DNA from: Bacteroidota bacterium
GTDB taxonomy: Bacteria > Bacteroidota > Ignavibacteria > UBA10030 > JAZGDE01
NCBI GenBank assembly: GCA_046758305.1
Contig: JBHHZW010000001.1
Location: 1 to 34,706 of the forward strand
DNA length: 34,706 bases
Direction: 5' to 3'
The translations under genes were made by a program, and so were the position numbers. The notes under the pieces were generated by a model, which was given only the letters and a program-made list of their open reading frames with translations, searched no databases and was not told where the DNA came from. Shown here piece by piece: positions 5,778 to 33,294 of this stretch; positions within the stretch are counted from its first letter, which is position 1, and every line of letters begins with the position of its first letter.

Positions 5778-6174
5778 TGCCGACGTTGTCTCGAGAGAGA
5801 AACTGAACGCGACCCGTCAGGTAGATTCTAACGCCAGAGAGCAGCGTCTATAGAGTTCGATGGAGAAGGAAGTTGACGTTTCGGACTCGTGCAGTCCAAT
5901 TCACCTTAAATATATAGCATCCATGGCGGAAATTCAAATTTGCTAATTGACATGTCTTGAGGTACTTACCACAGATAGTAAACGTCCGAGCGACGACTCG
6001 CTAACGATGCCTGACCGATGAGATATTGATGACAAGGGTCACAAGACCAATTTATCGAAGCATGGCTTGGCTCTCGCTACTCGAAAGTTTTGTTGTTACA
6101 TTGTGGCGGGAGCGCTGCTTTGGACAGCTTTCAGCCGGGACTCATCTCTTACTCTCCTTTCTGGCCGAACGCGT

Positions 6175-7326: not shown

Positions 7327-7389
7327 ATTCGACACGGTTTTTGTGTATATTAGCATACTTTTCTCGGGATCAGAAGGATAAGATTCAGG

Positions 7390-8382: not shown

Positions 8383-9092
8383 AGGCTGGCATCATTTCGG
8401 CCGGAGAAGGTCTGCGGCTGAGAGAAGATGGAATTCAGACCCCTAAACCCCTCGTGGAGGTCGATGGTGTCCCGCTCATAGATCGCCTGCTCACTGCCTT
8501 CACGGAGAATGGTGTCGCGGAGACTGTCTGCATCGTGAACGAGACGGACTCGGCGATTCAACGGCACGTCAGTGCTTTATCACTTCCTCTTCCCGTGCGT
8601 TTCATCCGCAAAAGGACCGAGAGTTCGATGCACAGCCTGTTCGAGCTTTCTCCGTATCTCACAGACGGCTCGTTTTTGCTCACGACTGTGGATTCTGTCT
8701 TCGATCCGGATGAATTTCGCCGCTTCGTGCTCTACTGCCAGCGGACCAAGGAGCTCGGTGGGATTCTTGCGGTCACAAAATTTGTTCAAGATGAAAACCC
8801 TCTCTGGGTTGAAGTCGACCATGACAATCGTGTCGTCCGCGTAGGGCAGAACCTGCCGTCAGCACTCTATGTGACAGGAGGGATCTACTATTTTTCTCCC
8901 TCCATATTCAGGGAGAAGGGAAATGCGCTTCGCCAGGGAGTCTCACGCTTGCGCAATTATCTTCCCCTTCTCGTCGAAAGCGGATACCGGTTCCATCCCT
9001 ATGTGTTCTCGAAAATCGTCAATGTCGATCATGCCGAGGACATCATCACAGCCGATCACCTTTTGAAATCTGTCAGGACTCTTCGCTCGTAG
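8379..9092 (+). CDS. Sugar/alcohol-phosphate nucleotidyltransferase (NTP_transferase fold)
   Basis: The N-terminal loop MKAGIISAGEGLRLRE....PKPLVEVDGVPLIDRLL is a variant of the GxGTRL nucleotidyltransferase signature. 237 aa, translationally coupled to the epimerase. The substrate cannot be read from the sequence. Confidence 0.7.
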   Translation: MKAGIISAGEGLRLREDGIQTPKPLVEVDGVPLIDRLLTAFTENGVAETVCIVNETDSAIQRHVSALSLPLPVRFIRKRTESSMHSLFELSPYLTDGSFLLTTVDSVFDPDEFRRFVLYCQRTKELGGILAVTKFVQDENPLWVEVDHDNRVVRVGQNLPSALYVTGGIYYFSPSIFREKGNALRQGVSRLRNYLPLLVESGYRFHPYVFSKIVNVDHAEDIITADHLLKSVRTLRS

Positions 9093-9098
9093 AAGGCT

Positions 9099-9881
9099 AT
9101 GGACGCTGCCGTTTTGCGCATATCCGACCGGATCAAGGGAAAGGTTTACAATATTCAGCGCTATTTCTTCTTTTGCGCGGATACAGTCTTGGCTTTTCCG
9201 TCAGCCTTCCGGTATCGTCGGGACACGCTGGAGCAAATGTACGTGAACGGAGTTCAGGCCGTTACTATCACGGCGATGGGGGGTCTGTTCATTGGATTAA
9301 TCATGGCGATTGAGACAGGGCATCGATTTGAAGCCTTTGGTGCGAAGCTGCTCGTCGGCCGCACGGTGGCCCTTGCGGTGGTGCGAACGCTTGGGCCGGT
9401 CATCACCGGTCTCATGCTGGCGGCGCGCAATGGGTCGAAGAACGCTGCTGAACTTGGTTCGATGCAGGTAAGCGAGCAGATCGATGCGCTCAAAGCCTTT
9501 GGGACAGACCCGATTGCCAAGCTTGTCGTCCCAAGAGTGATCTCGTCATTGATCATGTTCTTGCCATTGACACTTCTTGCCGATGCGATTGCACTCATCG
9601 CAGGTATGTGGGTTTCCGATGTCTGGCTTCACGTCGATCCCGTCTTCTACTGGAGTTCCGCGATCAACGGATTGCGGATGCAAGACCTGATTGTGGGTTT
9701 CACAAAGCCATTCACGTATGCATTTGTTATCTCGACGATCAGTTGTTACTATGGACTCACAACGACCGGTGGTACTACGGGCGTCGGTCGGGCGACAATC
9801 AACGCTGTCGTCATGTCATCGATTGTGGTATTATTCGTGGACTTCATCTTCACGAAGGTGGTCTGGGAATTGCTGAAGTAA
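9099..9881 (+). CDS. mlaE: MlaE-family ABC transporter permease
   Basis: 260 aa. Conserved MlaE core: VRTLGPVITGLMLAARNGSKNAAELGSMQVSEQIDALKAFGTDP. Confidence 0.9.
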   Translation: MDAAVLRISDRIKGKVYNIQRYFFFCADTVLAFPSAFRYRRDTLEQMYVNGVQAVTITAMGGLFIGLIMAIETGHRFEAFGAKLLVGRTVALAVVRTLGPVITGLMLAARNGSKNAAELGSMQVSEQIDALKAFGTDPIAKLVVPRVISSLIMFLPLTLLADAIALIAGMWVSDVWLHVDPVFYWSSAINGLRMQDLIVGFTKPFTYAFVISTISCYYGLTTTGGTTGVGRATINAVVMSSIVVLFVDFIFTKVVWELLK

Positions 9882-9906
9882 TCTGACAATTGCTGGTACG
9901 ATTGCA

Positions 9907-10647
9907 ATGGACATGATCCGATTGGAAAACGTGACGCTGGAGCTCGGAGGGAAGAAGGTTCTGTACAACGTCAGTCTGCGCCTTCACGAAGGTGAAACGA
10001 AAGTAATCCTTGGACCAAGCGGTGCAGGGAAAACGACCATTCTCAAGGCCATTTTGGGGCTGTTGAGACCGCAGTCAGGACGTGTGACCGTCTGCGGCGT
10101 GGAGTTGACGCGACTCCGTGAGAGAGATATCATACCGGTACGGCGGGAAATCGGCATGGTCTTCCAGGGGAATGCATTGTTCGATTCTCTCTCCGTGGCG
10201 GAAAACATTCTCTTCTTTGTCCGTGAGAACAATCGGATGAGTGAAACGGAAATGGACCAGATTGTTGAGGACATGCTCCAGCTGTGTAACCTCGGAGCGA
10301 TCGGTTCTCTGATGCCCGACGAGTTGAGCGGTGGGATGCGCAAGCGGGTTGCCATCGCCCGTGCACTCGCGTTTCATCCGAAGATCATTCTCTATGATGA
10401 ACCGACGACAGGTTTGGACCCGATCAATGCAAGAATGATAACGGACGTTATGGATAAGCTGGGCAGTGAAAGGCACGTCGGTTCGGTCGTTGTCACGCAC
10501 ATCTTGCGGGATGCCTATTCCGTGGCGGATACCGTCGCAATGATAAAGGAGGGGGTGATTGTCTTTGACGGGTCGTTCGACGAAATTCGCTCCTCACAAG
10601 AATCGTTTATCCAAGAATTTCTCTCAGAGATTAACTATTCAGACTGA
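9907..10647 (+). CDS. mlaF: MlaF-family ABC transporter ATP-binding protein
   Basis: Walker A GPSGAGKTT, signature LSGGMRKRVAIARAL and Walker B ILYDEPTTGLD. Confidence 0.9.
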   Translation: MDMIRLENVTLELGGKKVLYNVSLRLHEGETKVILGPSGAGKTTILKAILGLLRPQSGRVTVCGVELTRLRERDIIPVRREIGMVFQGNALFDSLSVAENILFFVRENNRMSETEMDQIVEDMLQLCNLGAIGSLMPDELSGGMRKRVAIARALAFHPKIILYDEPTTGLDPINARMITDVMDKLGSERHVGSVVVTHILRDAYSVADTVAMIKEGVIVFDGSFDEIRSSQESFIQEFLSEINYSD

Positions 10648-10661
10648 GGTACCGAAACCGT

Positions 10662-11462
10662 ATGCGATGGGTCCTCGTTCTTGTCGCTCTTCATCTCGTG
10701 GCGACGTCATTTGCACAGCGACCGGTCCTCGTTACGGAAGAGCCTTTCACCCTCGGTGACGGCAATCAAGTCATTGGTCTGGGATTTGAGTATCTTCGCA
10801 AGTCCTCTAGCGATGAAGGGATCAGCTTATCGCGACTCTGGAAGGTACCTGTTCTCCAGGTTGAAGTTGGACTTGGAGAACGAGTCAATTTCCAACTCCA
10901 CTGGCGGGGTGGGCTATTTGCGAGATCGAGCGATGGAGCCAACGCGTCCGATTTCGGTGACCTCTTCCTCGCGACGAAGATCCTCATCCTGCGAGAAACA
11001 CATGGACTTCCTGCGCTTGGATTCAAGTATGCTGTGAAGCTCCCGATGACGGGAGATGAAAAAGGGCTGGGAAGTGATAACACGGATTTTTTTGGTTCTT
11101 TGCTTTTCTCTAGAAAAATTGGTATCGTGGCAAGCCGGTTGAACCTTGGCATCGGCATCCTCGGGCATCCGCGCGCGCAAAACGCGCAAGACGACATCTA
11201 CACGTATGGCGCGGCACTCCTTCTTCCGATCAAACAGTCGGTTGCATTGTTCGTGGAAACGGCGGGCTTCTTTGGGCCGTTTGAGGATGATGACAAGCTC
11301 GTTGGGCGTTTGGGTCTTCAAGTCCGTAGGTTCGACCTTGGGTGGGCAGCATTTGGGGGCGTCAAGCTTTCTGGAACGCCTCGCGATTTCAGTACCGCGT
11401 TCGAATTGAGTGAGCGTTGGGGAATTGGGGTCTTTGTTTCTAAAGACATGCAACTGTGGTAG
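10662..11462 (+). CDS. Predicted outer-membrane beta-barrel protein, family unassigned
   Basis: Cleavable signal peptide MRWVLVLVALHLVATSFAQ. Alternating hydrophobic/polar strands run throughout, and the C-terminus GIGVFVSKDMQLW ends in an aromatic residue (OMP beta-signal-like). It sits between mlaF and mlaD with 14-nt and 45-nt gaps. Confidence 0.55.
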   Translation: MRWVLVLVALHLVATSFAQRPVLVTEEPFTLGDGNQVIGLGFEYLRKSSSDEGISLSRLWKVPVLQVEVGLGERVNFQLHWRGGLFARSSDGANASDFGDLFLATKILILRETHGLPALGFKYAVKLPMTGDEKGLGSDNTDFFGSLLFSRKIGIVASRLNLGIGILGHPRAQNAQDDIYTYGAALLLPIKQSVALFVETAGFFGPFEDDDKLVGRLGLQVRRFDLGWAAFGGVKLSGTPRDFSTAFELSERWGIGVFVSKDMQLW

Positions 11463-11507
11463 GATGTTTTCCGCGTTTCTGAAGCGCTAGATCGGCTATT
11501 TGTTGTC

Positions 11508-12470
11508 ATGGACAAGCAGACTTTTCGTTGGTCAGAGATCACGGTTGGAGTCGTTCTCGTCATCGCTTTTGGAGTCTTTCTCGTCGCACTAATCTTGGTG
11601 GGAAGCAACGTCAAGCTGTTTTCACCGACCTACTCCTTGAGGATGTTCGTGCCGAATATCGAAGGTCTTGTCGACGGCTCGATGGTCACGCTCGCCGGCA
11701 GGAAAGTGGGGTTCGTGAATGATATCCGATTTGCACAGCAGGATGGGATGAATGGAGTAGAAGTCGAACTCAGCATCGATACGAAGTACCAATCGCAGAT
11801 CACCAAACGGTCGAAGGCGACGATCAAGACGATCGGATTGCTGGGGGATAAGTACGTGGACATCACGCTCGGACAAACAGGTGAGAGGGTTCTGGCTGAA
11901 GGCGATCACGTCGCAGTGGACTTGACTCCCGACATCGCCGAAATATCAAGGAAGGTCTCCAGTGCGATTGACGATTTTGTCGAAACCGTGCGGCATGCAA
12001 GAAACATTACGCAAAAAATCGATGAGGGCAAGGGAGCGGTGGGTAGGCTCGTGAATTCTGAGGAGATGTCCGCGGGCCTGGACCGGTTCATCGCCTCCGT
12101 GAGTCGTATCACGGCAATCATGGAGTCGAAGAGCAGCACGGCGGGGAGAATGCTCCGGGACACCACTCTCTTTGTGGATTTGAGTGCAGTGGCGGAGAAC
12201 CTCAGTGAAATAACGACGAAAATCAGGCGCGGTGAGGGAACACTCGGAAAAGTTGTTACCGACCCGGCACTGTACGAAGAACTTTCTCGATTCGCGAATA
12301 AGTCTGATGCGCTCCTATCGAAGATGAACAACTCCGGCAGCTCTGCAGAAAAGCTCCTGACCGACCCTCAGTTGTACGATGAGCTCGTCCAGTTGATGAA
12401 GGTTCTCAATACGCTGGTGTCGGACCTCAAGGAGCATCCGGACCGGTACTTCCACTTTTCGGTCTTCTAA
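11508..12470 (+). CDS. mlaD: MlaD/MCE-domain protein, long form
   Basis: N-terminal TM anchor (VGVVLVIAFGVFLVALILVG) followed by an MCE domain. The extended C-terminal region has three related segments: GKGAVGRLVNSEEMSAGLDRF, GEGTLGKVVTDPALYEELSRF and SAEKLLTDPQLYDELVQL. 320 aa. Confidence 0.85.
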   Translation: MDKQTFRWSEITVGVVLVIAFGVFLVALILVGSNVKLFSPTYSLRMFVPNIEGLVDGSMVTLAGRKVGFVNDIRFAQQDGMNGVEVELSIDTKYQSQITKRSKATIKTIGLLGDKYVDITLGQTGERVLAEGDHVAVDLTPDIAEISRKVSSAIDDFVETVRHARNITQKIDEGKGAVGRLVNSEEMSAGLDRFIASVSRITAIMESKSSTAGRMLRDTTLFVDLSAVAENLSEITTKIRRGEGTLGKVVTDPALYEELSRFANKSDALLSKMNNSGSSAEKLLTDPQLYDELVQLMKVLNTLVSDLKEHPDRYFHFSVF

Positions 12471-12518
12471 TGTTGGGTTACAGGGTCAACGCTTTTCGGT
12501 CCGTAAGAGCCGCTCCAA

Positions 12519-12597
12519 CACGCCACGAAGTGGTGGCTTCGCCAAAGTGTTCCTTAGAAAAGGAGTCCATCACGCCACGAAGCGGTCAGTTCGTGGC
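12519..12597. repeat. Imperfect 23-nt direct repeat, each copy hairpin-capable, in the mlaD/ATP-grasp intergenic gap
   Basis: CACGCCACGAAGTGGTGGCTTCG (12519-12541) and CACGCCACGAAGCGGTCAGTTCG (12571-12593) match at 19 of 23 positions. The second copy forms a perfect 8-bp stem, GCCACGAA(12574-12581)/TTCGTGGC(12590-12597). No T-tract follows. Confidence 0.4.
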
Positions 12598-12675
12598 ATG
12601 TCGTATCGGACCTTCGGGAAAGGGGATTTGGCCATAGATTAAGGATTCTTTCACTGTCGAGACCAGAAGAACAGT

Positions 12676-13521
12676 ATGAAACTAAATTTTCTCGGAATTC
12701 GGCGGGATCCGAGATTCTCCCCAAGCCACGTGCAGAATGACGGCGAGATATTTCGATTGACCGCAGAGGCGTTGCGGCAAAGGGACTTCGTCGTTGTGGA
12801 GAAAGAAGAGAAGGAGGTCGGCTCCTTTTCGCTCGAGGCGCCTGCAGTGTTCACGATGTCGCGAAGCGTGGAGGCGTTCTCACGATTGCTTGTTCATGAG
12901 CAGCGGGGAAAACAGATCATCAACAGTCCGACAGGCGTTCTGAATTGCTATCGGTTCAACATGGTTTCGTTGTTACCGCAAGCAGGCATCCCGTTTCCCC
13001 GAGGCCTGATTGTTCAGACAGAGAATGGGCAGGTCTTGCCGGGATTTCTGCGCGACTCAAACCATGTGTAGGTGAAACGCAGCGATGTCCACGCGGTGGC
13101 AAAGACGAAGGATGTGTCTCAAGCCCACTCGCTTGGAGAGATCGGGAACGTGTTTCAGGATTTTCGAGCGCGTTGCATCGATAGTGCAGTGCTGCAGGAA
13201 CACATCGAGGGGGAGACGGTCAAGTTCTACGCAGTGCGCGGCGGATCATTCTTCCGATGGTACTTTCAGGACGAGAACTTGCAGGGGCCCCTCAATCCTG
13301 ACCGACTGTTTGTTCTCGCCGAGCGGGCTGTTGCTGCTCTGAACATCGAAATTTATGGTGGCGACGCCATCGTCACCTCTTCGGGCGAGGTCGTTATCGT
13401 CGACATGAACGATTGGCCTACCTCTGCTCGATTCCGTGAGGAAGCAAGCCGAGCGATCGCAGATTACCTCATTGGACGGTTTACTAGCTTTTGGAAGAGA
13501 CTGCGAGAAAAGCGCTGGTAG
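12676..13521 (+). pseudogene. ATP-grasp family enzyme interrupted by one in-frame TAG (13069-13071); appears in the ORF track as two same-frame ORFs of 131 and 149 aa
   Basis: Both ORFs are in the same frame, and the second 'start' is simply the GTG codon that follows the TAG. Read through, the junction is ..FLRDSNHV[TAG]VKRSDVHAV.., followed by the ATP-grasp-like core VLQEHIEGETVKFYAV and GGDAIVTSSGEVVIVDMNDWP (Mg/ATP-site-like). Confidence 0.6.
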
Positions 13522-13546
13522 AGCATTCCTGTCTTACTAACGTCAA

Positions 13547-13567
13547 GCTAGGCACGATTGGCCTAGC
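13547..13567 (+). terminator. Hairpin downstream of the ATP-grasp gene; weak terminator candidate
   Basis: GCTAGGC (13547-13553) pairs with GCCTAGC (13561-13567) around a 7-nt loop. No U-tract follows, so its function is doubtful. Confidence 0.25.
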
Positions 13568-13609
13568 ATCGGGGAGGCAGTACGTTCCGGCAGAACTCTT
13601 GACGCTTTC

Positions 13610-13843
13610 ATGCAATCGATTGAATCTCATCAACTTGTCGTACCATTCAACGATGTGCTAAGTAAGTTGATGGAGGAGGTGGGTTGGGGGTCACACGGAA
13701 CGTTCCTTGCGATTTCTTCCTCGTACGGGCCCGGATTTGATCACGAGTTCCAGAAGAAGGTGGATCCCGCCAGCGTCGCGGTAGACCTTCGCTTTTTGCG
13801 AGATCTTGGGCTCTCAGAAAAGCGTCGGACAGGAGAGTCATGA
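13610..13843 (+). CDS. Hypothetical 77-aa ORF
   Basis: An open frame only. I recognise no motif and see no clear SD. It fills the gap between the ATP-grasp and CDP-alcohol transferase genes. Confidence 0.2.
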   Translation: MQSIESHQLVVPFNDVLSKLMEEVGWGSHGTFLAISSSYGPGFDHEFQKKVDPASVAVDLRFLRDLGLSEKRRTGES

Positions 13844-13886
13844 TCCAGATTTGCGGGTGAAGTCGTTCTCGGTCAGCCGTTTGGGT

Positions 13887-14795
13887 ATGTCACAGATTGA
13901 ATCAACATTAAAGTCCCTCGAGGTTGAAGAAACAATCGACCTCTATTTTTTCCGTCCCCTCGGGTATTTCTTCGCACGTGTGTGCCAGAAGCTGGGCGTT
14001 ATGCCCAACGCCGTGACCGTCGCGAGCATCGTGCTTGGAGTGCTTGCCGGTCACCTTTTCTATTACCAGAGCCTTACCATCAATATCGTTGGTATTGCTC
14101 TCTTCCTGCTTGCAGACGTCTTTGACAGCGCCGATGGCCAGCTGGCCCGGATGAACGGCGCCTCCTCTAAGTTCGGACGGATCCTGGACGGGGTCGCGGG
14201 CAACTTGATCTTCGCGAGCATTTACGTCCATTTCTGTCTTCGACTTCTCGAGCAGGGGCACAGCCCGCTGGTATTTCTCTTGGCTTTGGTCGCCGGCACC
14301 AGCCATTCTTTCCAGAGCGGTATGTCCGATTACTACCGCAATGCCTTCCTGGGGTTCGTGAACGGAAAGGGAGAACTGGAATCCTCATCGAAGATCGCTA
14401 AGGAGTATCGCTCCTATCGGTGGCATTCACGTGATGTCGGAAAGAAGCTCCTGTTACGCGTCTACTTAAACTATACGATCCAGCAGGAATTGCTCTCCAG
14501 AAACTTTCAGCGTCTCCGTGAGGCGGTCGCTCGAGTGTGGGGGGGCAGACTTCCCTCTTCGTTTTCAGAACTGTACCGCGGTAAGAACAAGCCGATGATG
14601 AGGTTGTATTCGACGCTCTCGACCAACTTGCGGATCATCGTCATGTTCATCGTGATTTTCGTTGACAAGGTCATTCTCTACTTATGGTTTGAAGTTCTTG
14701 TGCTGAACGCATTGTTGGTGATCACAGTGATTTTCCAGGAGCGGATTAACAGGAACCTCATCGTATGGGTGGAGACACACCCCGAGGCTGGATAA
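13887..14795 (+). CDS. CDP-alcohol phosphatidyltransferase family protein
   Basis: Signature D80-SA-D83-G-QL-AR-x8-G97-RIL-D101 (DSADGQLARMNGASSKFGRILD) in a polytopic membrane protein. I prefer the ATG at 13887 over the TTG at 13806. The fourth canonical Asp position is Gly (see findings). Confidence 0.85.
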   Translation: MSQIESTLKSLEVEETIDLYFFRPLGYFFARVCQKLGVMPNAVTVASIVLGVLAGHLFYYQSLTINIVGIALFLLADVFDSADGQLARMNGASSKFGRILDGVAGNLIFASIYVHFCLRLLEQGHSPLVFLLALVAGTSHSFQSGMSDYYRNAFLGFVNGKGELESSSKIAKEYRSYRWHSRDVGKKLLLRVYLNYTIQQELLSRNFQRLREAVARVWGGRLPSSFSELYRGKNKPMMRLYSTLSTNLRIIVMFIVIFVDKVILYLWFEVLVLNALLVITVIFQERINRNLIVWVETHPEAG

Positions 14796-15803
14796 ATGAG
14801 AAGGGTGGAGCTCATATTTTTCGTCGTCGGTATTGCCATCTTAGCGTACCTTGTGCACGCGTTCGGCCTCGGGAAGCTGATCGAAAACCTCCGGGACAAT
14901 GCGTGGATCATTTTCGCTCTCATCGGGACCTATTTCGGAGTGTACCTTCTCAACACGGGGGCCTTCCGAATCGTTCTTGGAAAGGAGACCAATCGCATCA
15001 GTTTCTCCCAGCTGTTTGGCATCACGGTTTCGGGTTTCGCGATCAACTACGTGACACCTTTCGTCAACCTTGGAGGCGAGCCGTATAAGATCCATGCGCT
15101 GTCGAAAAAGCTCGAAGCGTCACAATCGGTCTCGTCGGTTGTCTCCTTTCGAATGCTTCACATCCTCGCGCATCTGTTCAGTTGGTTGACCGCGATCATC
15201 CTCGCGTTCTTCTTTATTGACATTACGATTCCGCTCCTGCTCCTCCTGCTGGTAACGGGTTCGATCATTCTCGTCCTTATCGCACTCGTCTTTCTTGGAC
15301 ACGAGAAGGGTTTGTTCGAGAAAGTTCTCAAACTGTTGTCCAAGGTATCCTTCCTGCGCTTGTTTGCCCAGAAGCTGCAGCGGAAGGAGGAGGTGATTCT
15401 TCAGATCGATGAGGAGATTCGGCAGTTCTACCATGAGCGAAAAAAAGATTTCTATGGAGCACTCGGTCTTGAATATCTAAGCCGGATCGTGCAAAGTATC
15501 GAACTGTACCTGATCTTCTCCACCCTGAGCGCTCCGTTCAACTTTGTGGAGATTTATTTCATCTTCGCCGCATCGTCCATGATCAGCAACTTGCTCTTCT
15601 TCTTTCCGATGGAGATTGGGGTCAAGGAAGGAGGATTATTTGCAATCCTCAGCTATTTCCTATTTTCGCCTCTCCTGAGTATTTATATCGGCGTCCTGAT
15701 CAGGATCCGTGAGTTTTTCTGGATTGTATTCGGGTTGGGTATGATTCTGGTGAACGGGGGTTGGACTCGGGTTGTGCAAATCACGGGAGGGAGGAAGGGA
15801 TGA
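14796..15803 (+). CDS. UPF0104 / lysyl-PG-synthase-TM-like ('flippase-like') polytopic membrane protein
   Basis: 335 aa with about 8 TM helices. A central amphipathic linker and the family-typical FFFPMEIGVKEGGLF segment are present. It starts immediately after the preceding TAA. Confidence 0.7.
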   Translation: MRRVELIFFVVGIAILAYLVHAFGLGKLIENLRDNAWIIFALIGTYFGVYLLNTGAFRIVLGKETNRISFSQLFGITVSGFAINYVTPFVNLGGEPYKIHALSKKLEASQSVSSVVSFRMLHILAHLFSWLTAIILAFFFIDITIPLLLLLLVTGSIILVLIALVFLGHEKGLFEKVLKLLSKVSFLRLFAQKLQRKEEVILQIDEEIRQFYHERKKDFYGALGLEYLSRIVQSIELYLIFSTLSAPFNFVEIYFIFAASSMISNLLFFFPMEIGVKEGGLFAILSYFLFSPLLSIYIGVLIRIREFFWIVFGLGMILVNGGWTRVVQITGGRKG

Positions 15804-16492
15804 GATGGGATGTCGATGCGTTGCTGCTCGACTTTGGCGGAACGATCGATGCGGACGGTATTCATTGGGGAGAGCGGTTCTTCCAGTTCTACCGCGAAGC
15901 GGGAATCGAGTTGCCGCGAGCCCAGTTCGATGAGGTCTTTGAGAAAGTGGACGCGGAGATCCAGGATCGCGACGTTGAACATTCTAGGTTCCGAGACCTC
16001 GTGGCGCTTCAAGTTCACACCCAGTGCATACATCTCAAAATCGAGTCGGGGGTCATTCAGCAGCAAGTAGTCGACCGAGCGGTGCGGGATGCCGCTGTCT
16101 GCATTGAGGGTAATAAGAAGATCCTACAACAGTGTGCTCGTTGCCTGCGGCTGGGATTGGTCTCGAACTATCACGGCAACCTCCTCACCGTGTGTCGGGA
16201 ATTCGGTCTCGACGATATCTTCGGCGTGATCGTGGATTCGAAGATCGTCCGTGTTGAGAATCCGAATCCGAAGCCATTTGAAATCGCGCTCGGTGCGCTC
16301 AGGGTAGAGCCTGAACGCGCGGCGTTCGTCAGTGATTCTTACAACAGTGACATCGTTGGATCGAAATCGCTTGGACTGAAGACGATCTGGCTGCAACACG
16401 AGATGAATCGAATCCAGGGCGATCCAACGAAAATCGACACGATCGTTCGTTCTTTGGAGGAACTCGGAACGTTGATTTGTTCAGAGTGTTGA
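15800..16492 (+). CDS. HAD-superfamily hydrolase (subfamily IA-like)
   Basis: Motif I LLLDFGGTI, motif II LGLVSNY and motif IV FVSDSYNSDI. I chose the ATG at 15800, which overlaps the upstream TGA (ATGA) and is preceded by GGAGGGAGGAAGGG. Confidence 0.8.
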   Translation: MRWDVDALLLDFGGTIDADGIHWGERFFQFYREAGIELPRAQFDEVFEKVDAEIQDRDVEHSRFRDLVALQVHTQCIHLKIESGVIQQQVVDRAVRDAAVCIEGNKKILQQCARCLRLGLVSNYHGNLLTVCREFGLDDIFGVIVDSKIVRVENPNPKPFEIALGALRVEPERAAFVSDSYNSDIVGSKSLGLKTIWLQHEMNRIQGDPTKIDTIVRSLEELGTLICSEC

Positions 16493-16520
16493 AGCAACGA
16501 ACAAAGGAAGGCAGCGTCTT

Positions 16521-17834
16521 ATGGACCGGAAACGTGTGCAACCCCCGAAGGGGAAACTCGGCGTTTTGCTCGTTGGACTCAACGGCGCCGTCTCGACCAC
16601 CTCCGTTGCGGGAGTTCTGACGGTACGCAGAGGAAAAGCGAAGCCAATAGGATCCCTCACGCAGATGGGACACATCCGTCTGGGCAAACGGACAGAACAA
16701 CGATCCCCTCTCATCAAGCACTTCGTCCCCCTCACTGAACTGAAAGACTTGGTGTTCGGCGGCTGGGATATTCGGAACGAGGACCTCTATACTTCCTCTG
16801 TGAAAGCAGCGGTCTTGGAGCGGGGGCATCTTGACCCGGTGAAGAGTGAACTCCAAAAGATCCGGCCGATGAAGGCAGTGTTCGATCGGCGGTACGTCAA
16901 ACGTATTTCAGGCACGCATGTGAAACAAGGGCGGAACAAATATGAACTTGCGCTCCGATTGCGGGAGGACATCCGGACGTTCAAGAAGAAAAACGGCCTC
17001 GATCGAGTGGTCATCATCTGGTGCGGTAGCACGGAAACCTACATTAAGCCTAGCGGCGTGCACCAATCGATCGAAAAGCTCGAAGAAGCAATGAAAAAGA
17101 ACCATAAAGACATCCCACCGAGCATGCTGTATGCGTACGCGGCGATCGCTGAAGGCGTTCCCTACGCGAACGGCGCACCGAATCTTACTGTTGACATCCG
17201 TGCCCTGATTGAGTTTGCAAAGGAGAGGGGTACGCCCATCGCGGGCAAGGATTTCAAGACAGGCCAGACATTGGTGAAAACGGTGGTCGCTCCGATGCTC
17301 AAAGCGCGAATGCTTGGCCTCCACGGCTGGTTCTCCAGCAACATTCTCGGCAACCAGGACGGCGTTGTGCTCGACGATCCAGGGTCGTTCAAGACCAAGG
17401 AGAAGAGCAAGCTTTCTGTCCTCGAGTACATTCTGCAGCCAGAGCTGTACCCTGACCTTTACAAGGATTTTTACCATCTTGTCCGCATCAATTACTATCC
17501 ACCGCGCGGTGACAATAAGGAGGGTTGGGACAATATCGACATCTTTGGCTGGCTGGGATACCGCATGCAGATCAAGATCGATTTCCTCTGTCGGGATTCC
17601 ATCCTTGCTGCTCCGATCGTTCTCGACCTTGCGCTCTTGCTCGACCTTGCAAGACGCGTCGGCTTGCACGGAATTCAAGAGTGGCTCTCGTTTTACTTTA
17701 AGAGTCCAATGGTCGCTTCAAGTCTCTACCCGGAACACGACTTGTTCATTCAGCTGATGAAGCTCAAGAATAACCTGCGGTATATCATGAGGGAGGAGTT
17801 GATAACGCATCTCGGCGTCGAATATTACGACTGA
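16521..17834 (+). CDS. ino1: myo-inositol-1-phosphate synthase
   Basis: 437 aa. N-terminal NAD-binding GVLLVGLNGAVSTT, IIWCGSTE, and the conserved WFSSNILGNQDG (the SxxxLGNxDG block of MIPS). An SD (AAGGAAGG) lies upstream. Confidence 0.92.
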   Translation: MDRKRVQPPKGKLGVLLVGLNGAVSTTSVAGVLTVRRGKAKPIGSLTQMGHIRLGKRTEQRSPLIKHFVPLTELKDLVFGGWDIRNEDLYTSSVKAAVLERGHLDPVKSELQKIRPMKAVFDRRYVKRISGTHVKQGRNKYELALRLREDIRTFKKKNGLDRVVIIWCGSTETYIKPSGVHQSIEKLEEAMKKNHKDIPPSMLYAYAAIAEGVPYANGAPNLTVDIRALIEFAKERGTPIAGKDFKTGQTLVKTVVAPMLKARMLGLHGWFSSNILGNQDGVVLDDPGSFKTKEKSKLSVLEYILQPELYPDLYKDFYHLVRINYYPPRGDNKEGWDNIDIFGWLGYRMQIKIDFLCRDSILAAPIVLDLALLLDLARRVGLHGIQEWLSFYFKSPMVASSLYPEHDLFIQLMKLKNNLRYIMREELITHLGVEYYD

Positions 17835-17854
17835 ATTGGCGTGTCTCTGCAAAG

Positions 17855-17893
17855 GGTCGACTCCTGCTGTGTGGGGGTCGGCCTTTTCTTTTT
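17855..17893 (+). terminator. Rho-independent terminator after ino1
   Basis: The stem GGTCGAC (17855-17861) pairs with GTCGGCC (17877-17883), 7 bp including one G-U, around a 15-nt loop. TTTTCTTTTT follows at 17884-17893. Confidence 0.55.
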
Positions 17894-17960
17894 GCCTCTC
17901 GGTTTGATGTTTCGAAGAGATTTTGGTACTTTAAGGGTTGCGGAGATTCAACGCAATGAT

Positions 17961-19382
17961 ATGCCAGTAGCGCGACAGCTGGACATACATACCCGTCTCA
18001 TCGACGCCATTCACGATCTCTGCTTTGTCCTCTCGTCGGACAACACTATCCTCTATTGCAACAGGAAGGCTGCTGAGGTATTCGGTCATTCGGAAGCGCA
18101 GCTTCGCGGTCTGGATTTTTCCACGTTTATTCACGACGACGTGCGCGATCATTTCCGGAGGTCCCTCCAGGTTCTCTCGTTAAACCAGTCTACGGATATC
18201 GCAGTCAACCTCAATGCTTATGGTAAAGAGCTATTCGGAGAAGTTCGGGTTCACCGAACGAAGATTCAAGAAGGTGAGGTCTTTGTGCTCACGATCCGCG
18301 ATGTGCCTACAGACGAAGAAAAACAGCTCGATCTTCTTCGGTTCTCAAGCGTCATTGAGCACACGATTAATCCCATCCAGATCACCGATGCAAACGGACG
18401 GATGGTTTATGTAAATCCTGCCTTCGAGCGGTCCACAGGCTACTCTCGAGATGAGTTGATTGGCAAAAACCCCAATATTCTGAGGAGCGGCAAGCACAGC
18501 AAGGAGTTCTGGAAAGAAGTGTGGAAGACGATCCTCTCAGGAGAATCCTGGATCGGTGAAATCGAAAACCGACGGAAAAATGGTGAACCGCTTCACACAC
18601 AGCTGATTATTGCTCCGATCGCTGACTCCTCGGAAAAAGTCGTTGGCTTTTTGGGAGCCCATCGTGACATCACGAAGGAAAAATTCCTTCAACAGCAGCT
18701 CATCCGATCGCAGAAAATGGACAGTATCGGCACTCTCTCCGCGGGCATCGCCCACGAGGTCGGAAATCCGCTGGCATCCATTGCCTCGCTCGTCCAGGTG
18801 ATTCAGCGCTCCACCACAGAAGACTTTGTGAGGGAAAAGCTCGACCTGTTCAAGAATCAGATCAATAGGATTTCGACGGTCATTCGACAGCTCGTCGACT
18901 TTTCCCGGCCATCCAACTATGAGCTTCGACCGACAAACGTGAATGCAGTTCTGCGGGAGGCCGTCACGATCGTCCAGTACGGCAAAAAAGCCACACACGT
19001 ACGGTTTGACCTTCAACTTGACGACACGATTCCTCTCCTTAAGGTAGTCCCGGATCAGATCGTTCAGGTCTTCATCAACATTCTGATGAACGCCTATGAC
19101 TCCCTTGAGGGAAAGCCAGGAGAAATTTCTGTTCGGACATACAGAAAAGATAGCGCTGTGTGCGTGACGATCCGGGATACAGGAAAAGGAATCCTGAAGC
19201 GTGACTTGGAGAAGATTTTTGATCCGTTCTTCACGACGAAGGATGTTGGTCAAGGGACGGGACTCGGCCTGTGGGTCAGTTACGGCATTATCAAGTCATT
19301 TGACGGGGACATCACAGTCCACAGCGAGGAGGGAAGAGGGAGTACGTTCACTGTGATCGTACCGATCGACAAGAGGGAATAA
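17961..19382 (+). CDS. PAS-PAS sensor histidine kinase (NtrB-like, apparently cytoplasmic)
   Basis: H-box HEVGNPLASI, N-box NILMNAYDS and G-boxes DTGKGI / GTGLGL are present, with two PAS-like segments upstream. The ORF-track GTG start (17841) would translate through the ino1 terminator, so I prefer the ATG at 17961. ATG 17910 is an alternative. Confidence 0.85.
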   Translation: MPVARQLDIHTRLIDAIHDLCFVLSSDNTILYCNRKAAEVFGHSEAQLRGLDFSTFIHDDVRDHFRRSLQVLSLNQSTDIAVNLNAYGKELFGEVRVHRTKIQEGEVFVLTIRDVPTDEEKQLDLLRFSSVIEHTINPIQITDANGRMVYVNPAFERSTGYSRDELIGKNPNILRSGKHSKEFWKEVWKTILSGESWIGEIENRRKNGEPLHTQLIIAPIADSSEKVVGFLGAHRDITKEKFLQQQLIRSQKMDSIGTLSAGIAHEVGNPLASIASLVQVIQRSTTEDFVREKLDLFKNQINRISTVIRQLVDFSRPSNYELRPTNVNAVLREAVTIVQYGKKATHVRFDLQLDDTIPLLKVVPDQIVQVFINILMNAYDSLEGKPGEISVRTYRKDSAVCVTIRDTGKGILKRDLEKIFDPFFTTKDVGQGTGLGLWVSYGIIKSFDGDITVHSEEGRGSTFTVIVPIDKRE

Positions 19383-19385
19383 GAC

Positions 19386-20747
19386 ATGGCAGATCGCATC
19401 TTGGTCGTCGACGATGAGAAGATCATTCGCGAGTCGCTTTCGTTCATCCTTGAGAAGGAAGGATATGATGTCTCGGAGGCGGCCAACGGCGTGGAGGCAC
19501 TGAAGCAGCTGAAACAGAAGCCTGTCGACATCGTGTTGACCGATCTCGAGATGCCCGAGATGAAAGGAATCGAGCTGCTGGAGCGAGTGACTCGACAGTT
19601 CCCGGAGACATTCGTTATCATCATCACGGCGTATGGCTCGCTCGAGACGGCGATCGCTGCACTGCGCAATGGGGCGTTTGACTACATCCTGAAACCCATC
19701 GAGTTCGACGACGTCCTCCATCGGATCCGACGATTGATTGAGCATCGTCGGCTCGCCCGGGAGAACACGCTGCTACGTCAAGAGCTTCATCAGCAGTACG
19801 ACTTTGATGCGATCATCGGCAAGAGCGCCGCGATGCTGGATGTGTTCGACACGATCAAGAAAGTTTCTCAGACGGACAGGACGGTCCTTATCACCGGCAA
19901 GAGCGGCACGGGGAAAGAACTCGTGGCACGCGCGATCCACTTTAACGGCCGGCGCAAGCAGAATCGATTTGTCGCCGTGAACTGCGGTGCAATCGTGGAG
20001 ACGCTGTTTGAGAGCGAACTCTTCGGTCATAAGAAGGGATCGTTTACAGGCGCGACGGCAGACAGGGATGGTCTGTTTAAAGCCGCGCACGAAGGAACTC
20101 TCTTTCTGGACGAGGTGAGTGAAATACCGATCCATCTTCAGGTGAAGTTGTTGCGGGCGATCGAGCAGAAGGAGATCATTCCTGTTGGGATGACCGACCC
20201 GATTCAGGTGGACGTGCGCATCATCGCGTCAACGAACAAGAATCTGTATGGACTGATGGAAGAAAAAAAATTCCGAGACGATCTCTACTACCGGCTGAAT
20301 GTGGTCGAGATTCACCTGCCCTCGCTCACGGAACGGCCGGAGGACATTCCGCCGCTCCTGCAACACTTTGTGCAACATTACCGGGCGCAGATGATAAAAA
20401 ACGTAAGAGGTTTGACGAACGATGCGGTGAATGCCTTGATGAGGTACCAGTGGAAGGGTGAGGTCCGTGAGCTCCAAAATATCATCGAGCGGGCGATGAT
20501 CTTTTGTGAGGAGGAGTACATTGGACTGGAGCATCTTCCCGAGCACGTGCGGTCGGCCGTGACCGACGGAGATGCGCTTCGATTCCATACCGGCTCGTTG
20601 CTCAAGGATGCTGTCAAAGATTTTGAGAAGCAATACATCAAACGGACGCTTGAGCAATGCCAGAACGACAAAGAGAAAACTGCCAAGCTGCTTGGTATCG
20701 GACTCTCCTCGCTCTATCGAAAGATGGACGAACTCGGCTTTTCGTAG
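19386..20747 (+). CDS. Sigma-54-dependent response regulator (NtrC/AtoC family enhancer-binding protein)
   Basis: REC domain (DIVLTDLEMPEMKG), AAA+ Walker A GKSGTGKE, ESELFGHKKGSFTGA (GAFTGA-type loop), and a C-terminal Fis-type HTH (KEKTAKLLGIGLSSLYRKM). Confidence 0.92.
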   Translation: MADRILVVDDEKIIRESLSFILEKEGYDVSEAANGVEALKQLKQKPVDIVLTDLEMPEMKGIELLERVTRQFPETFVIIITAYGSLETAIAALRNGAFDYILKPIEFDDVLHRIRRLIEHRRLARENTLLRQELHQQYDFDAIIGKSAAMLDVFDTIKKVSQTDRTVLITGKSGTGKELVARAIHFNGRRKQNRFVAVNCGAIVETLFESELFGHKKGSFTGATADRDGLFKAAHEGTLFLDEVSEIPIHLQVKLLRAIEQKEIIPVGMTDPIQVDVRIIASTNKNLYGLMEEKKFRDDLYYRLNVVEIHLPSLTERPEDIPPLLQHFVQHYRAQMIKNVRGLTNDAVNALMRYQWKGEVRELQNIIERAMIFCEEEYIGLEHLPEHVRSAVTDGDALRFHTGSLLKDAVKDFEKQYIKRTLEQCQNDKEKTAKLLGIGLSSLYRKMDELGFS

Positions 20748-33185: not shown

Positions 33186-33294
33186 CAGACCTACTCCCCT
33201 GACGGATGCGATAGGAACAGCGGACGATGCAAGGCAGTGAATGTCATTTGAACGATTCCACGGAATGGTGACGAGACCGACAGGAGGTTCACCG

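Follow-up and report, generated by a model that had tools for sequence, protein, structure and literature searches.

How could a member of the Ignavibacteria assemble an inositol lipid, and what might an ATP-grasp enzyme and a UPF0104 membrane protein contribute? The first-pass annotation of the window (the whole analyzed stretch of 34,706 nucleotides) described an inositol-headgroup lipid cluster outside Actinobacteria at positions 12676 to 17893. We uphold that description: the gene order is that of the Bacteroidota alternative cluster, which recurs in 80 genomes. A Bacteroidota route without a PIP intermediate, mentioned in the annotation, is present in the literature as a prediction (Heaver et al. 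2022, PMC9246714). The window probably carries an environmental, Ignavibacteria-type copy of this "alternative" inositol-lipid operon, in which the headgroup, rather than the lipid, would be activated by CTP.

Extent and organization of the cluster

The open reading frames between 12676 and 17893, all on the + strand, were confirmed. The cluster is wider than first reported. Its 5' end is an NTP transferase gene (8379-9092), followed by four lipid-transport genes (encoding MlaE, MlaF, a 266-aa protein, and MlaD) that lie between it and the remaining cluster. The original limits thus hold for the genes listed but leave out the conserved NTP transferase, which is part of the system and defines the proposed CDP-inositol route. 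The features are as follows.

8379-9092, + strand: NTP transferase, candidate CTP:inositol-phosphate cytidylyltransferase (IPCT-like); PF12804 and PF00483 (Pfam)
9099-9881, + strand: MlaE-type ABC permease; PF02405, E 3.7e-70
9907-10647, + strand: MlaF-like ABC ATPase; Walker A GPSGAGKT and signature LSGGMRKR in the translation
10662-11462, + strand: conserved 266-aa secreted protein; signal-peptide-like N-terminus, C-terminal residue Trp
11508-12470, + strand: MlaD/MCE protein whose C-terminal region is long and helical; PF02470, E 1.7e-16; TIGR04430 MlaD, E 3.4e-21
12514-12541 and 12566-12593, no strand: 28-nt direct repeat, intergenic, 5' of the ATP-grasp gene
12571-12600, no strand: hairpin with 11-bp arms, intergenic, 5' of the ATP-grasp gene
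12676-13521, + strand: ATP-grasp enzyme gene, 281 codons with an in-frame TAG; candidate ITPK-like inositol or inositol-phosphate kinase
13522-13886, no strand: fast-evolving spacer holding a 77-aa ORF (13610-13843); no family matches
13887-14795, + strand: CDP-alcohol phosphotransferase, 302 aa, B. vulgatus-type family; CDP-OH_P_transf PF01066, E 5.5e-13
14796-15803, + strand: UPF0104/LPG_synthase_TM flippase-like membrane protein; PF03706, E 2.2e-28, 100 bits (cut-off 33.4)
15800-16492, + strand: HAD-IA hydrolase with atypical motif I DFGGT; PF00702, E 9.4e-14, also PF13419 and PF13242
16521-17834, + strand: MIPS (synthase of myo-inositol-1-phosphate); PF07994, E 1.8e-104, 350 bits; PF01658, 109 bits
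17851-17896, + strand: intrinsic terminator closing the operon; 17-pair stem with 8 G-C pairs, 3-nt loop, T-rich tail

When the sequence was re-read, the claimed positions of junctions, in-frame stop, and terminator all proved exact. The transferase TAA (14793-14795) directly abuts the UPF0104 ATG at 14796, the UPF0104 and HAD genes share an ATGA overlap (15800-15803), and 28 nt separate the HAD stop (16490-16492) from the MIPS ATG (16521). The terminator hairpin (17851-17887), followed by CTTTTTGCC, begins 17 nt past the MIPS stop (17832-17834). No other terminator-like site in 12000-18500 is as strong; this region has 13 such sites vs 6.9 ± 2.8 in shuffles. The profile searches proposed as a check matched the CDP-alcohol transferase, UPF0104, HAD, and MIPS products to PF01066, PF03706, PF00702, and PF07994, respectively, in agreement with the identities first given. 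The transferase is 100% identical to a deposited 302-aa protein, which puts its start codon at 13887 (ATG) instead of 13806.

The 77-aa ORF had been counted as a cluster gene, a status it loses here. It has no family match in Pfam or NCBIfam, and neither of the two closest relatives (L001 and L089) conserves it. The spacer around it is ~50% identical to that of L089 at the nucleotide level, vs 76-78% in the flanking genes; in L089 every frame of the spacer is interrupted by stops, and tblastn finds no match to the ORF. Similarity in L001 is weak, and in other relatives this place is taken by an aminotransferase gene or by ~50 nt. By sequence comparison, the ORF is probably not a gene and the spacer non-coding.

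Conservation across Bacteroidota

We compared 80 genome loci and 9 metagenome loci from several Bacteroidota classes. A shared gene order recurs in 80 genomes, among them those of Ignavibacteria, Sphingobacterium, Dyadobacter, Runella, Parabacteroides, Muribaculaceae, and Prevotellaceae: NTP transferase, ATP-grasp, CDP-alcohol transferase, (UPF0104), and HAD, with MIPS present or absent. Conservation of gene order in relatives, one of the tests set out in the first-pass annotation, is borne out for the core in ~90 loci, with MIPS present within 10 kb in 49 of the 80 genome loci. Recurrence in ~90 independent loci puts this order far beyond chance.

The transferase is 40-51% identical, over its full length, to those of the 80 genome loci. 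An ATP-grasp gene lies 5' of it within 4 kb in 75/78 loci and within 10 kb in 77/78, and a HAD gene adjoins it in 77/77. The NTP transferase is found within 4 kb in 62/77, most others being displaced by the Mla insertion, and its orthologues stand directly 5' of the ATP-grasp gene in most loci. The core domains also occur as natural fusions (NTP-ATPgrasp, NTP-ATPgrasp-transferase, HAD-NTP-ATPgrasp, and ATPgrasp-transferase), with domains 41-44% identical to the proteins of the window; for example, the window NTP transferase matches the N-terminal domain of P0285, an NTP-transferase/ATP-grasp fusion, at 44% identity. The window MIPS is 63-74% identical to those of related Ignavibacteria-type clusters, many of which add an aminotransferase and a Gfo/Idh/MocA oxidoreductase.

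The "putative alternative inositol lipid cluster" of the B. vulgatus type (Heaver et al. 2022, Nat Microbiol, PMC9246714) comprises NTP transferase BVU_RS13095, CDP-alcohol phosphatidyltransferase BVU_RS13105, and HAD BVU_RS13115 beside MIPS; in P. veroralis, transferase and HAD are fused (PMC9246714). The enzyme families match those of the window, as does the order, Mla insertion apart. Supplementary Table 5 of that study lists S. detergens, S. multivorum, and P. distasonis among the species in which the B. vulgatus transferase, HAD, and NTP transferase have strong homologues (PMC9246714). We find the cluster in S. detergens CECT 7938 (L044), S. multivorum (L046), and P. distasonis (L077), the strains of the latter two differing from those in the table. 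The window transferase, NTP transferase, and HAD are orthologous to and syntenic with these loci, at ~24-45% identity (tblastn). The window differs from the B. vulgatus type in the four Mla-type genes that split off the NTP transferase, in the stop codon of its ATP-grasp gene, and in a transferase Asn in place of a shifted acidic residue.

The alternative cluster has therefore already been published as a prediction, and we found no biochemistry in the literature for any gene of this cluster type. Added here, by comparison of ~90 loci, is the near-universal presence of the ATP-grasp gene in the core. A search of the main text of Heaver et al. and of accompanying supplements found no mention of this gene (PMC9246714). 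A locus-tag gap at BVU_RS13100 suggests that B. vulgatus may have the gene too. The ATP-grasp and UPF0104 genes had been called two unassigned partners. Neither has been given a role in a described inositol pathway, as claimed, but neither is peculiar to this locus: the first is present in 77/78 loci, and an LPG-synthase-like (UPF0104) neighbor was already remarked by Heaver et al. (PMC9246714).

The ATP-grasp enzyme as a candidate kinase

The ATP-grasp gene had been described as split. It is interrupted, but not in two pieces: a single reading frame contains one TAG at 13069-13071. This TAG (TGG→TAG) stands at a Trp invariant in 53 homologues. Either the copy in the window is a pseudogene, with loss of that step, or a wrong base call (sequencing error) produced the TAG.

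No Pfam model matches the window product, even at E<10, and its assignment to ATP-grasp holds at the level of structure and profile. The AF2 model of an intact homologue (72% identity) has a confident ATP-grasp fold (pLDDT 92), and its top Foldseek matches are Ddl, ZmITPK1, RimK, and ArgX, with PsnB also among the top. The Pfam check suggested earlier (PF05770 and PF08443) thus fails for the window product but succeeds for some members of its family, scanned individually. PF05770 (ITPK) matches the most members, 13/53, at scores below the Pfam gathering threshold, and PF08443 matches 12/53; RimK-type ligase models match about as often as ITPK models. The best sequence-level relatives of the family profile in the PDB, at marginal values, are ITPK4 (E 4e-4) and human ITPK1 (E 2.4e-3).

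Of the two roles first conceived for this enzyme, kinase and ligase, an ITPK1-type kinase remains a live reading on these ZmITPK1, ITPK4/ITPK1, and PF05770 matches. ITPK1/ITPK4 (PF05770; PDB 2q7d, 7pup, 7tn3) have the same ATP-grasp fold (TM 0.70/0.74, 20-21% identity to ZmITPK1) and also an inositol context. Both groups have the C-terminal motif xG.D.I....G...(I/V)D(I/L)N.(F/W)P(S/G)(F/Y), the KFY strand, and D-x-N metal ligands; sequence matches are marginal (E 4e-4 to 2e-3), and RimK models score similarly. The D-x-N motif is present in all 86 homologues read from fetched loci, vs E-x-N in the ligase PsnB. P. distasonis keeps the cluster but has no MIPS homologue, a pattern compatible with a requirement for an inositol kinase. 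Reviews describe ITPKs from eukaryotes and Lokiarchaeota, with InsP3-InsP5 or Ins3P as substrates. We predict that the ATP-grasp enzyme is probably an inositol kinase.

A ligase would instead add an amino acid or carboxylate to the inositol headgroup or an amino derivative, and the UPF0104 protein would flip the modified lipid in the manner of MprF. PF08443 (best E 8e-6), the Ddl, RimK, ArgX, and PsnB structures, and the JGI annotation of relatives as "glutathione synthase/RimK-type ligase-like" are consistent with such an enzyme, and the aminotransferase and oxidoreductase of many Ignavibacteria-type clusters could create an amine acceptor. Yet the ATP-grasp gene is kept in ~65 loci that have neither aminotransferase nor UPF0104, its NTP-transferase fusion partner is typical of kinase/nucleotidyltransferase pairs, its metal motif is that of ITPKs, and plain PI-dihydroceramide is reported in B. 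vulgatus and P. veroralis, both with the alternative cluster (PMC9246714). A ligase role appears improbable.

Proposed activation and transfer of the headgroup

The family profile of the NTP transferase has its best PDB match, over the full length, in 4JD0 (E 2.9e-11), the inositol-1-phosphate cytidylyltransferase of T. maritima (PMC12275187); sugar-1-phosphate nucleotidyltransferases score about equally well. R13, K23, and D105, the catalytic R/K/D positions, are invariant in the family.

The transferase carries the motif DSADGQLAR...GRILDGVAGN, from which the canonical fourth Asp is absent. At a shifted acidic position, Ignavibacteria-type proteins, including that of the window, have Asn, and relatives have Asp or Glu. 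Its AF2 model (pLDDT 92.9) is nearest to AF2299 among PDB structures (TM 0.53), and structural comparison fails to separate donor types. We regard it as a candidate CDP-inositol:lipid-alcohol phosphoinositol transferase.

In the mycobacterial or B. thetaiotaomicron-type scheme, the transferase would be a PIP synthase (CDP-diacylglycerol + Ins1P → PIP) and the HAD protein a PIP phosphatase, with the NTP transferase and ATP-grasp enzyme as accessories. The best single-sequence NCBIfam matches of the transferase are indeed archaetidylinositol-phosphate synthase (46.8 bits) and PIP synthase (41.7 bits), enzymes that use a CDP-lipid and Ins1P, but all NCBIfam scores are far below the cut-offs, by 4-10 times. 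PIP synthases follow AF2299 among its PDB neighbors, and the position of HAD after the transferase in 77/77 loci, and their fusion in P. veroralis, follow the usual transferase-then-phosphatase logic. This scheme leaves unexplained two genes that are conserved like HAD and, in some organisms, fused to the transferase. Furthermore, motif I of the HAD protein is D[YF]GGT in 85/87 homologues, without the Asp+2 of canonical HAD phosphatases. We consider a PIP-synthase route unlikely. The earlier statement that a phosphatase completes the route is not secure either, as HAD lacks this general acid.

A compatible-solute pathway resembling that for di-myo-inositol-phosphate, also entertained at first, would combine an IPCT, a DIPPS-like transferase, and a phosphatase. 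These are the same three enzyme classes, and the NTP transferase resembles IPCT. However, the Thermococcales IPCT/DIPPS model NF041135 gives 29 bits on the transferase (cut-off 580) and the DIPPS structure 4mnd gives 14 bits; the operon itself contains flippase-like and Mla lipid-transport genes; and the cluster is common in mesophilic gut Bacteroidales, with two species that carry it, B. vulgatus and P. veroralis, making inositol lipids (PI-dihydroceramide). A solute product is hardly credible.

A proposed CDP-inositol route

Our preferred reading, held with fair confidence, is that the cluster encodes a CDP-inositol (Kennedy-type) pathway to a phosphoinositol lipid that has its own export system. 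MIPS, by family assignment, would convert glucose-6-P to inositol phosphate. The IPCT-like NTP transferase, as its best structural relative, the conservation of its catalytic residues, and its context suggest, would form a CDP-inositol-type donor, from which the divergent CDP-alcohol phosphotransferase would move phospho-inositol to a membrane lipid alcohol. The ATP-grasp and HAD proteins may set the phosphorylation state of the cyclitol around cytidylylation. The former, most likely an ITPK-like kinase, would supply the phosphorylated substrate of the NTP transferase, from free or salvaged inositol or by a second phosphorylation of Ins3P; the latter might take off a phosphate before cytidylylation or dephosphorylate the lipid-linked product. 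Neither a kinase nor a phosphatase is required in a plain CDP-inositol route, so these two roles are guesses.

A sphingolipid variant would activate the lipid: the ATP-grasp enzyme would phosphorylate a lipid alcohol (e.g., ceramide), the NTP transferase would make CDP-lipid, the transferase would couple Ins1P, and HAD would strip the terminal phosphate. This scheme employs all four core genes, would explain PI-dihydroceramide synthesis without a PI-DAG donor, and accords with the phosphatase that normally follows CDP-alcohol transferases taking phosphorylated acceptors. Against it, inositol phosphates are the substrates of the closest relatives of both soluble enzymes, and no CDP-ceramide pathway is known. 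We judge it very unlikely.

Headgroup activation has a precedent in the IPCT/BEPIS/MIPS operon of Rhodothermus marinus (Jorge et al. 2015, Environ Microbiol, as summarized in PMC4587543), according to that summary the only bacterial route biochemically shown to use CDP-inositol as phospho-inositol donor to a lipid alcohol. By its description there, the operon links MIPS, a cytidylyltransferase, and a CDP-alcohol-family transferase as here, in the same phylum-level group; the summary names no kinase, HAD, flippase-like, or Mla genes (PMC4587543).

Predicted export of the lipid

On the evidence of linkage, the UPF0104 protein, an MlaFED-like transporter, and the 266-aa secreted protein could move the lipid outward. 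The UPF0104 protein also matches TIGR00374, "flippase-like domain" (71 bits, cut-off 43). Its matches to this model and to LPG_synthase_TM are full-length, as for the flippase domain of MprF (PF03706), but it has no C-terminal aminoacyl-PG synthase domain. BT_1521, beside the B. thetaiotaomicron inositol cluster, is likewise a PF03706 protein adjoining inositol-lipid genes. The UPF0104 gene is present in only about half of related clusters (between transferase and HAD in 36/77 loci, elsewhere in the cluster in some others), and its product is a predicted, facultative flippase-like partner.

All Ignavibacteria-type loci have Mla genes inserted within the cluster. The insertion seen in the window, with MlaE between the NTP transferase and ATP-grasp genes, recurs in L001, L004, L006, and 10/80 genome loci, all Ignavibacteria-type. 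The L001 orthologue of the MlaF-like protein (82% identity) carries PF00005. The 266-aa protein has no match in Pfam or NCBIfam; it is 75% identical to the product of the same-position gene in L001 and 45-47% identical to a protein encoded just 3' of MIPS in L002, L003, and L009, and may be the outer-membrane partner of the transporter. MlaD orthologues show weak or faint Helical_needle matches in L001 and L004, and that of L006 is unmarked. MlaC, MMPL, and OEP genes adjoin the most divergent versions of the cluster.

Operon layout

The window is a 34,706-bp contig from an NCBI metagenome-assembled genome labelled Bacteroidota bacterium. All genes at 6067-20747 lie on the plus strand. The operon and its upstream neighbours are arranged as follows.

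6067-8382, plus strand: GT4 glycosyltransferase and SDR epimerase, upstream of the operon genes
8379-9092, plus strand: NTP transferase
After the NTP transferase, plus strand: Mla block of MlaE, an ABC ATPase, a 266-aa protein (10662-11462) and MlaD
After the Mla block, plus strand: ATP-grasp gene
13887-14795, plus strand: CDP-alcohol phosphotransferase (hereafter, the transferase)
From 14796, plus strand: UPF0104 protein
15800-16492, plus strand: HAD protein
16521-17834, plus strand: MIPS (myo-inositol-1-phosphate synthase)
17851-17896: intrinsic terminator

The transferase start is placed at 13887 because the deposited protein has 302 aa. The tight packing described by the first-pass annotation is borne out: the ATG at 14796 directly follows the TAA at 14793-14795, an ATGA overlap is found at 15800-15803, and a 28-nt gap precedes the MIPS ATG. 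The proposed terminator is a 17-pair hairpin with a T tail, 17 nt past the MIPS stop. Pfam also agrees on the families named there (CDP-OH_P_transf, LPG_synthase_TM, HAD, and MIPS). The 77-aa open reading frame (ORF) listed as a further gene fared differently. It has no family match and no tblastn match in the nearest relative (L089), where the spacer holding it has stops in all frames and only ~50% nucleotide identity to the window, against 76-78% for the flanking genes; we therefore rejected it as a small conserved protein.

The GT4 and epimerase genes were considered as PimA-like partners and left out of the system: GT4 synteny occurs only in the close relative L001, and the epimerase has no credible counterpart in other loci (tblastn). 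The 266-aa protein gave no match in Pfam or NCBIfam. It is 45-47% identical to the gene just after MIPS in three related loci (L002, L003, and L009) and so travels with the cluster. The Mla block encloses the gene for this secreted protein, which may act as a component of the outer membrane.

The 205 nt that separate MlaD from the ATP-grasp gene contain, at 12514-12600, a direct repeat of 28 nt (82% identical, 52-nt spacing) together with a hairpin with 11-bp arms, which may be a regulatory or terminator-like element. No regulatory RNA was found in the whole window by Rfam at gathering thresholds. Directly past the operon terminator are a PAS-domain histidine kinase and an NtrC-type sigma-54 response regulator (17900-20747). 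The listed start of a 513-aa ORF (GTG 17841) overlaps the terminator, and its true start is thus probably further downstream. In L089, an aconitase follows MIPS in place of this pair.

The operon is of a published cluster type

We find that the window belongs to the B. vulgatus-type alternative cluster of Heaver 2022 (NTP transferase BVU_RS13095, transferase BVU_RS13105, and HAD BVU_RS13115; PMC9246714). The link runs through three species whose transferases are 40-43% identical to that of the window over the full length: S. detergens CECT 7938 (L044), S. multivorum (L046), and P. distasonis (L077). These species are listed in Supplementary Table 5 of that study as having strong homologues of all three genes, with E values of 1e-100 to 1e-118 against BVU_RS13105 (PMC9246714). 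L044 is the same strain as in that table, while L046 and L077 are other strains of their species. Consistent with this placement, the window has the NTP transferase gene (8379-9092), a HAD gene beside the transferase, and MIPS nearby.

The cluster type is known but biochemically uncharacterized. Heaver 2022 pointed out the LPG-synthase-like neighbour and reported the predicted alternative cluster to be ~4x as common as the B. thetaiotaomicron-type in Prevotella (PMC9246714). We found no mention of the ATP-grasp gene in its main text or in part of its supplements. Searching the literature for this alternative cluster, and for inositol-lipid clusters with ATP-grasp enzymes, returned nothing past Heaver 2022 and a 2023 review, and no later paper resolving the alternative cluster enzymatically.

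Conservation across related loci

Two close relatives (L001 and L089; transferase 80-81% identical) have the gene order of the window and an intact ATP-grasp gene. More distant Ignavibacteria-type loci, including that of the cultured Melioribacteraceae bacterium 4301-Me (L006), have the order NTP transferase, MlaE, MlaF, MlaD, ATP-grasp, class-III aminotransferase, transferase, Gfo/Idh/MocA oxidoreductase, UPF0104, HAD, MIPS. A genome scan with a family-specific transferase alignment recovered 80 loci with full-length matches at 40-51% identity. They come from Ignavibacteria, Kapabacteria, and Melioribacter metagenome-assembled genomes; from Sphingobacterium, Dyadobacter, Runella, Larkinella, Parapedobacter, and Olivibacter; and from Parabacteroides distasonis, Dysgonomonas, Muribaculaceae, and Prevotellaceae.

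The first-pass annotation had made its interpretation depend on conserved gene order next to MIPS. In tblastn with the window proteins, NTP transferase, ATP-grasp, transferase, UPF0104 (where present), and HAD follow one another in this order almost everywhere.

Genes accompanying the transferase in related loci
HAD, next to the transferase: 77 of 77
ATP-grasp: 75 of 78 within 4 kb, 77 of 78 within 10 kb
NTP transferase: 62 of 77 within 4 kb; in most other loci the Mla insertion pushes it further out
UPF0104: 36 of 77
MIPS: 49 of 80 within 10 kb
Aminotransferase: 12 of 80
Gfo/Idh/MocA: 13 of 80
MlaE: 10 of 80

In many Ignavibacteria-type clusters, the class-III aminotransferase and Gfo/Idh/MocA genes flank the transferase and are translationally coupled to it (e.g., L006:10847-14115). 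Loci listed for this pattern are L002-L006, L010, L012-L015, L017, L019, L021-L023, L026, and L037. It suggests an oxidized, transaminated (inosamine-type) cyclitol headgroup in these loci. Both genes are missing from the window and its closest relatives, and tblastn found no remnants of either in the 365-nt spacer or the rest of the window.

Variant signatures in the transferase and HAD

The transferase scores 50 bits against the Pfam CDP-OH_P_transf model (PF01066; gathering score 22) yet departs from the superfamily signature D1xxD2GxxAR...GxxxD3xxxD4, and is thus a superfamily member with a variant signature. It keeps D1, D2, G, A, R, G, and D3 but lacks D4, where the window motif (DSADGQLAR...GRILDGVAGN) has Gly, then Asn. 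Asp is likewise missing at D4 in 117 of the best 120 homologues. Among the fetched loci, the residue after the D4 position is Asp in 56 of 86 and Asn in 29 of 86, with Glu in the fusion protein P0359. At this shifted position, Bacteroidales, Sphingobacteriia, and Cytophagia have Asp; the Ignavibacteria type, with the window among its members, has Asn.

The transferase reaches no equivalog model and has no close solved structure. It had been proposed that placement inside the PgsA or PssA clades would count against an inositol pathway. By profile score and PDB comparison it does not fall there: TIGR00560 (pgsA) gives 34 against a cut-off of 109, TIGR00473 (pssA) gives 25.6 against 107, and PDB chains of PgsA and PssA score under AF2299 and the phosphatidylinositol phosphate (PIP) synthases. 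This last ranking is among the points in favour of a PIP-synthase-type route, which we consider unlikely; the NCBIfam scores for PIP synthase and archaetidylinositol-phosphate synthase stay below their equivalog cut-offs (NF045883, 41.7 against 170; NF052561, 34.6 against 350; NF040950, 46.8 against 180). A DIP-like solute, which the first-pass annotation had allowed for as the product, is scarcely credible: the DIPP synthase (IPCT/DIPPS) model NF041135 gives 29 against a cut-off of 580, and the DIPPS structure 4mnd matches with E 0.19 and TM 0.48. Foldseek did not discriminate between a CDP-headgroup (CHPT1/CEPT1-like) and a CDP-lipid (PIPS-like) donor because all its matches are weak (best TM 0.53, AF2299). 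A CDP-ceramide-type route, also considered here, seems very improbable to us.

HAD phosphatases use the second Asp of motif I (Asp+2) as general acid/base. The HAD protein has the fold (PF00702, 52.7 bits), but its motif I reads DFGGT, and D[YF]GGT in 85 of 87 homologues, rather than DxDx(T/V), so that the Asp+2 of canonical HAD phosphatases is absent. Judged by this motif, it is not a canonical phosphatase.

The remaining membrane and synthase assignments are straightforward. The UPF0104 protein is a full-length flippase-like domain protein (PF03706, 100 bits against a cut-off of 33.4; TIGR00374, 71.2 against 43.2). PF03706 covers its 335 aa end to end, leaving no aminoacyl-PG synthase domain; MprF, in contrast, has such a domain at its C terminus, and the window protein is a UPF0104 member rather than MprF. 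MIPS matches PF07994 (350 bits) and PF01658 (109 bits).

An IPCT-like NTP transferase

The NTP transferase (PF12804 and PF00483) is 31-54% identical to counterparts in 70-odd related loci, most often encoded immediately upstream of ATP-grasp. The Mla insertion displaces it in the window, as in L001, L004, L006, and L010-L014. The best PDB match of the family is 4JD0 (E 2.9e-11, full length), the T. maritima inositol-1-phosphate cytidylyltransferase (IPCT), in whose active site lie R16, K26, and D112 (PMC12275187). R13, K23, and D105 are invariant in the window's family, with matching spacing; sugar-1-phosphate nucleotidyltransferases score almost as well as 4JD0. In P. distasonis (L077), the NTP transferase ORF extracted at 8373-9092 has an in-frame stop. 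This could stem from the coordinates picked for its start and stop, or the ORF could be another disrupted gene of this cluster type.

The ATP-grasp protein is a candidate kinase

The first-pass annotation described the ATP-grasp gene as split. An interruption is indeed present; the gene, however, is one frame with a single TAG (13069-13071) in place of the Trp that all 53 homologues share and that the closest relative also has. The suggested hmmscan did not identify the product, which no Pfam model matches directly, but the fold could be assigned from an AF2 model of an intact homologue (72% identical; pLDDT 92.1). This model has 675 PDB matches at E<=1e-3, and the top 50 listed are all ATP-grasp enzymes, among them Ddl, ZmITPK1, RimK, ArgX, and PsnB. 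ZmITPK1 has the highest identity among the listed matches (20-21%, at TM 0.70/0.74). K132, K181, D228, and D241 are invariant in the family, and N243 is nearly so. The fold, three-domain ATP-grasp with motifs for Lys and the Mg ligands, is settled.

Ligases in general carry an E-x-N metal motif. All 86 ATP-grasp homologues from the fetched loci have D-x-N, in common with ITPK1 and ITPK4 and in contrast to the E-L-N of PsnB. Run against PDB sequences, the family profile picks up ITPK4 (E 4e-4) and human ITPK1 (E 2.4e-3) by way of a C-terminal motif in common, and PsnB at a comparable level (E 4.6e-4). Scanned member by member, PF05770 matches 13 of 53 proteins (best E 4.9e-4, under the gathering score) and PF08443 matches 12 of 53. 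We lean toward a kinase over a ligase; that the enzyme is a ligase decorating the headgroup, as the PsnB and RimK resemblances might suggest, appears unlikely.

An exhaustive profile search returned 1,490 representative clusters of the ATP-grasp family, including fusions of four kinds: NTP-transferase/ATP-grasp, NTP-transferase/ATP-grasp/CDP-OH-transferase, HAD/NTP-transferase/ATP-grasp, and ATP-grasp/CDP-OH-transferase (P0285, P0287, P0299, P0302, P0319, P0355, P0359, P0289, and P0314). Their domains are 44% (NTP transferase) and 41% (transferase) identical to the window proteins. There is strong support for a single pathway shared by the ATP-grasp protein and the other three enzymes.

A proposed pathway

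By family assignment, MIPS makes inositol phosphate. Relatives and gene context suggest that the NTP transferase would form a CDP-inositol-type donor, from which the transferase would pass phospho-inositol to a lipid alcohol; linkage suggests that UPF0104, an MlaFED-like transporter, and the secreted 266-aa protein may export the lipid. A CDP-inositol route was proposed by Heaver et al. (PMC9246714) and was demonstrated in Rhodothermus by Jorge et al. 2015, according to the summary in PMC4587543. Since a plain route of this kind needs neither kinase nor phosphatase, the universal ATP-grasp and HAD genes need explaining.

Two schemes use every core gene. In scheme (a), HAD would dephosphorylate Ins3P and the ATP-grasp enzyme would later re-phosphorylate the cyclitol for cytidylylation; where the Gfo and aminotransferase genes occur, the free cyclitol could be oxidized and transaminated in between. 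This fits the fusions of NTP transferase with ATP-grasp, the variants that have aminotransferase and Gfo genes, and the fact that P. distasonis keeps the cluster despite lacking any MIPS homologue. In scheme (b), the ATP-grasp enzyme would put a second phosphate on Ins3P, the phosphorylated headgroup would be cytidylylated and transferred, and HAD would then strip the extra phosphate off the lipid. This fits the transferase-HAD fusion of P. veroralis and the retention of HAD where MIPS is absent.

The most far-reaching reading, which we consider less likely than not, makes the ATP-grasp protein a cyclitol kinase, bacterial and ITPK-like, which, with an IPCT-like NTP transferase (fused in some organisms) and the variant transferase, would form a complete "Kennedy pathway for inositol" (kinase, cytidylyltransferase, phosphotransferase) making inositol lipids from free or salvaged inositol; Ignavibacteria versions with the Gfo/Idh/MocA dehydrogenase and class-III aminotransferase would make aminocyclitol (inosamine-phosphate) headgroup lipids. 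To our knowledge, this lipid class is undescribed. Should the TAG prove genuine, this organism would rely on Ins3P from MIPS passing straight to the NTP transferase, or its pathway would be impaired.

Host interaction is influenced by the inositol lipids that gut and oral Bacteroidota make. The published three-gene model leaves out a fourth, ITPK-like enzyme, conserved and in some cases fused to the others. Together with the non-canonical HAD, it offers concrete hypotheses for the missing steps, and it is a candidate for the inositol kinase sought without success in earlier Tannerella work. The environmental versions connect this pathway with lipid export of the Mla type and, among relatives, possibly with aminocyclitol headgroups. 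Against the literature searched, three points appear to be new: the ATP-grasp enzyme as a core, sometimes fused, ITPK-like component; the variant signatures in both transferase and HAD; and the Mla export and aminocyclitol-type tailoring genes of environmental versions. These bear on the whole family more than on the window, which by itself is a modest case, one more, slightly damaged, copy of the cluster.

Divergent versions and an unlinked lipid gene

The most divergent versions are L007:7208-15198 and L008:7201-20834, with 35-39% identity in the ATP-grasp protein. In their transferases (432-440 aa) the canonical fourth Asp is retained, and a cytosolic domain is present at the N terminus. 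MlaC, MMPL, and OEP genes lie nearby, with no MIPS within 10 kb, and L008 has two ATP-grasp gene copies and a B12/radical-SAM gene. Elsewhere in the window, unlinked to the cluster, 33241-34503 encodes a membrane-lipid-modifying enzyme, a cyclopropane-fatty-acyl-phospholipid synthase (PF02353).
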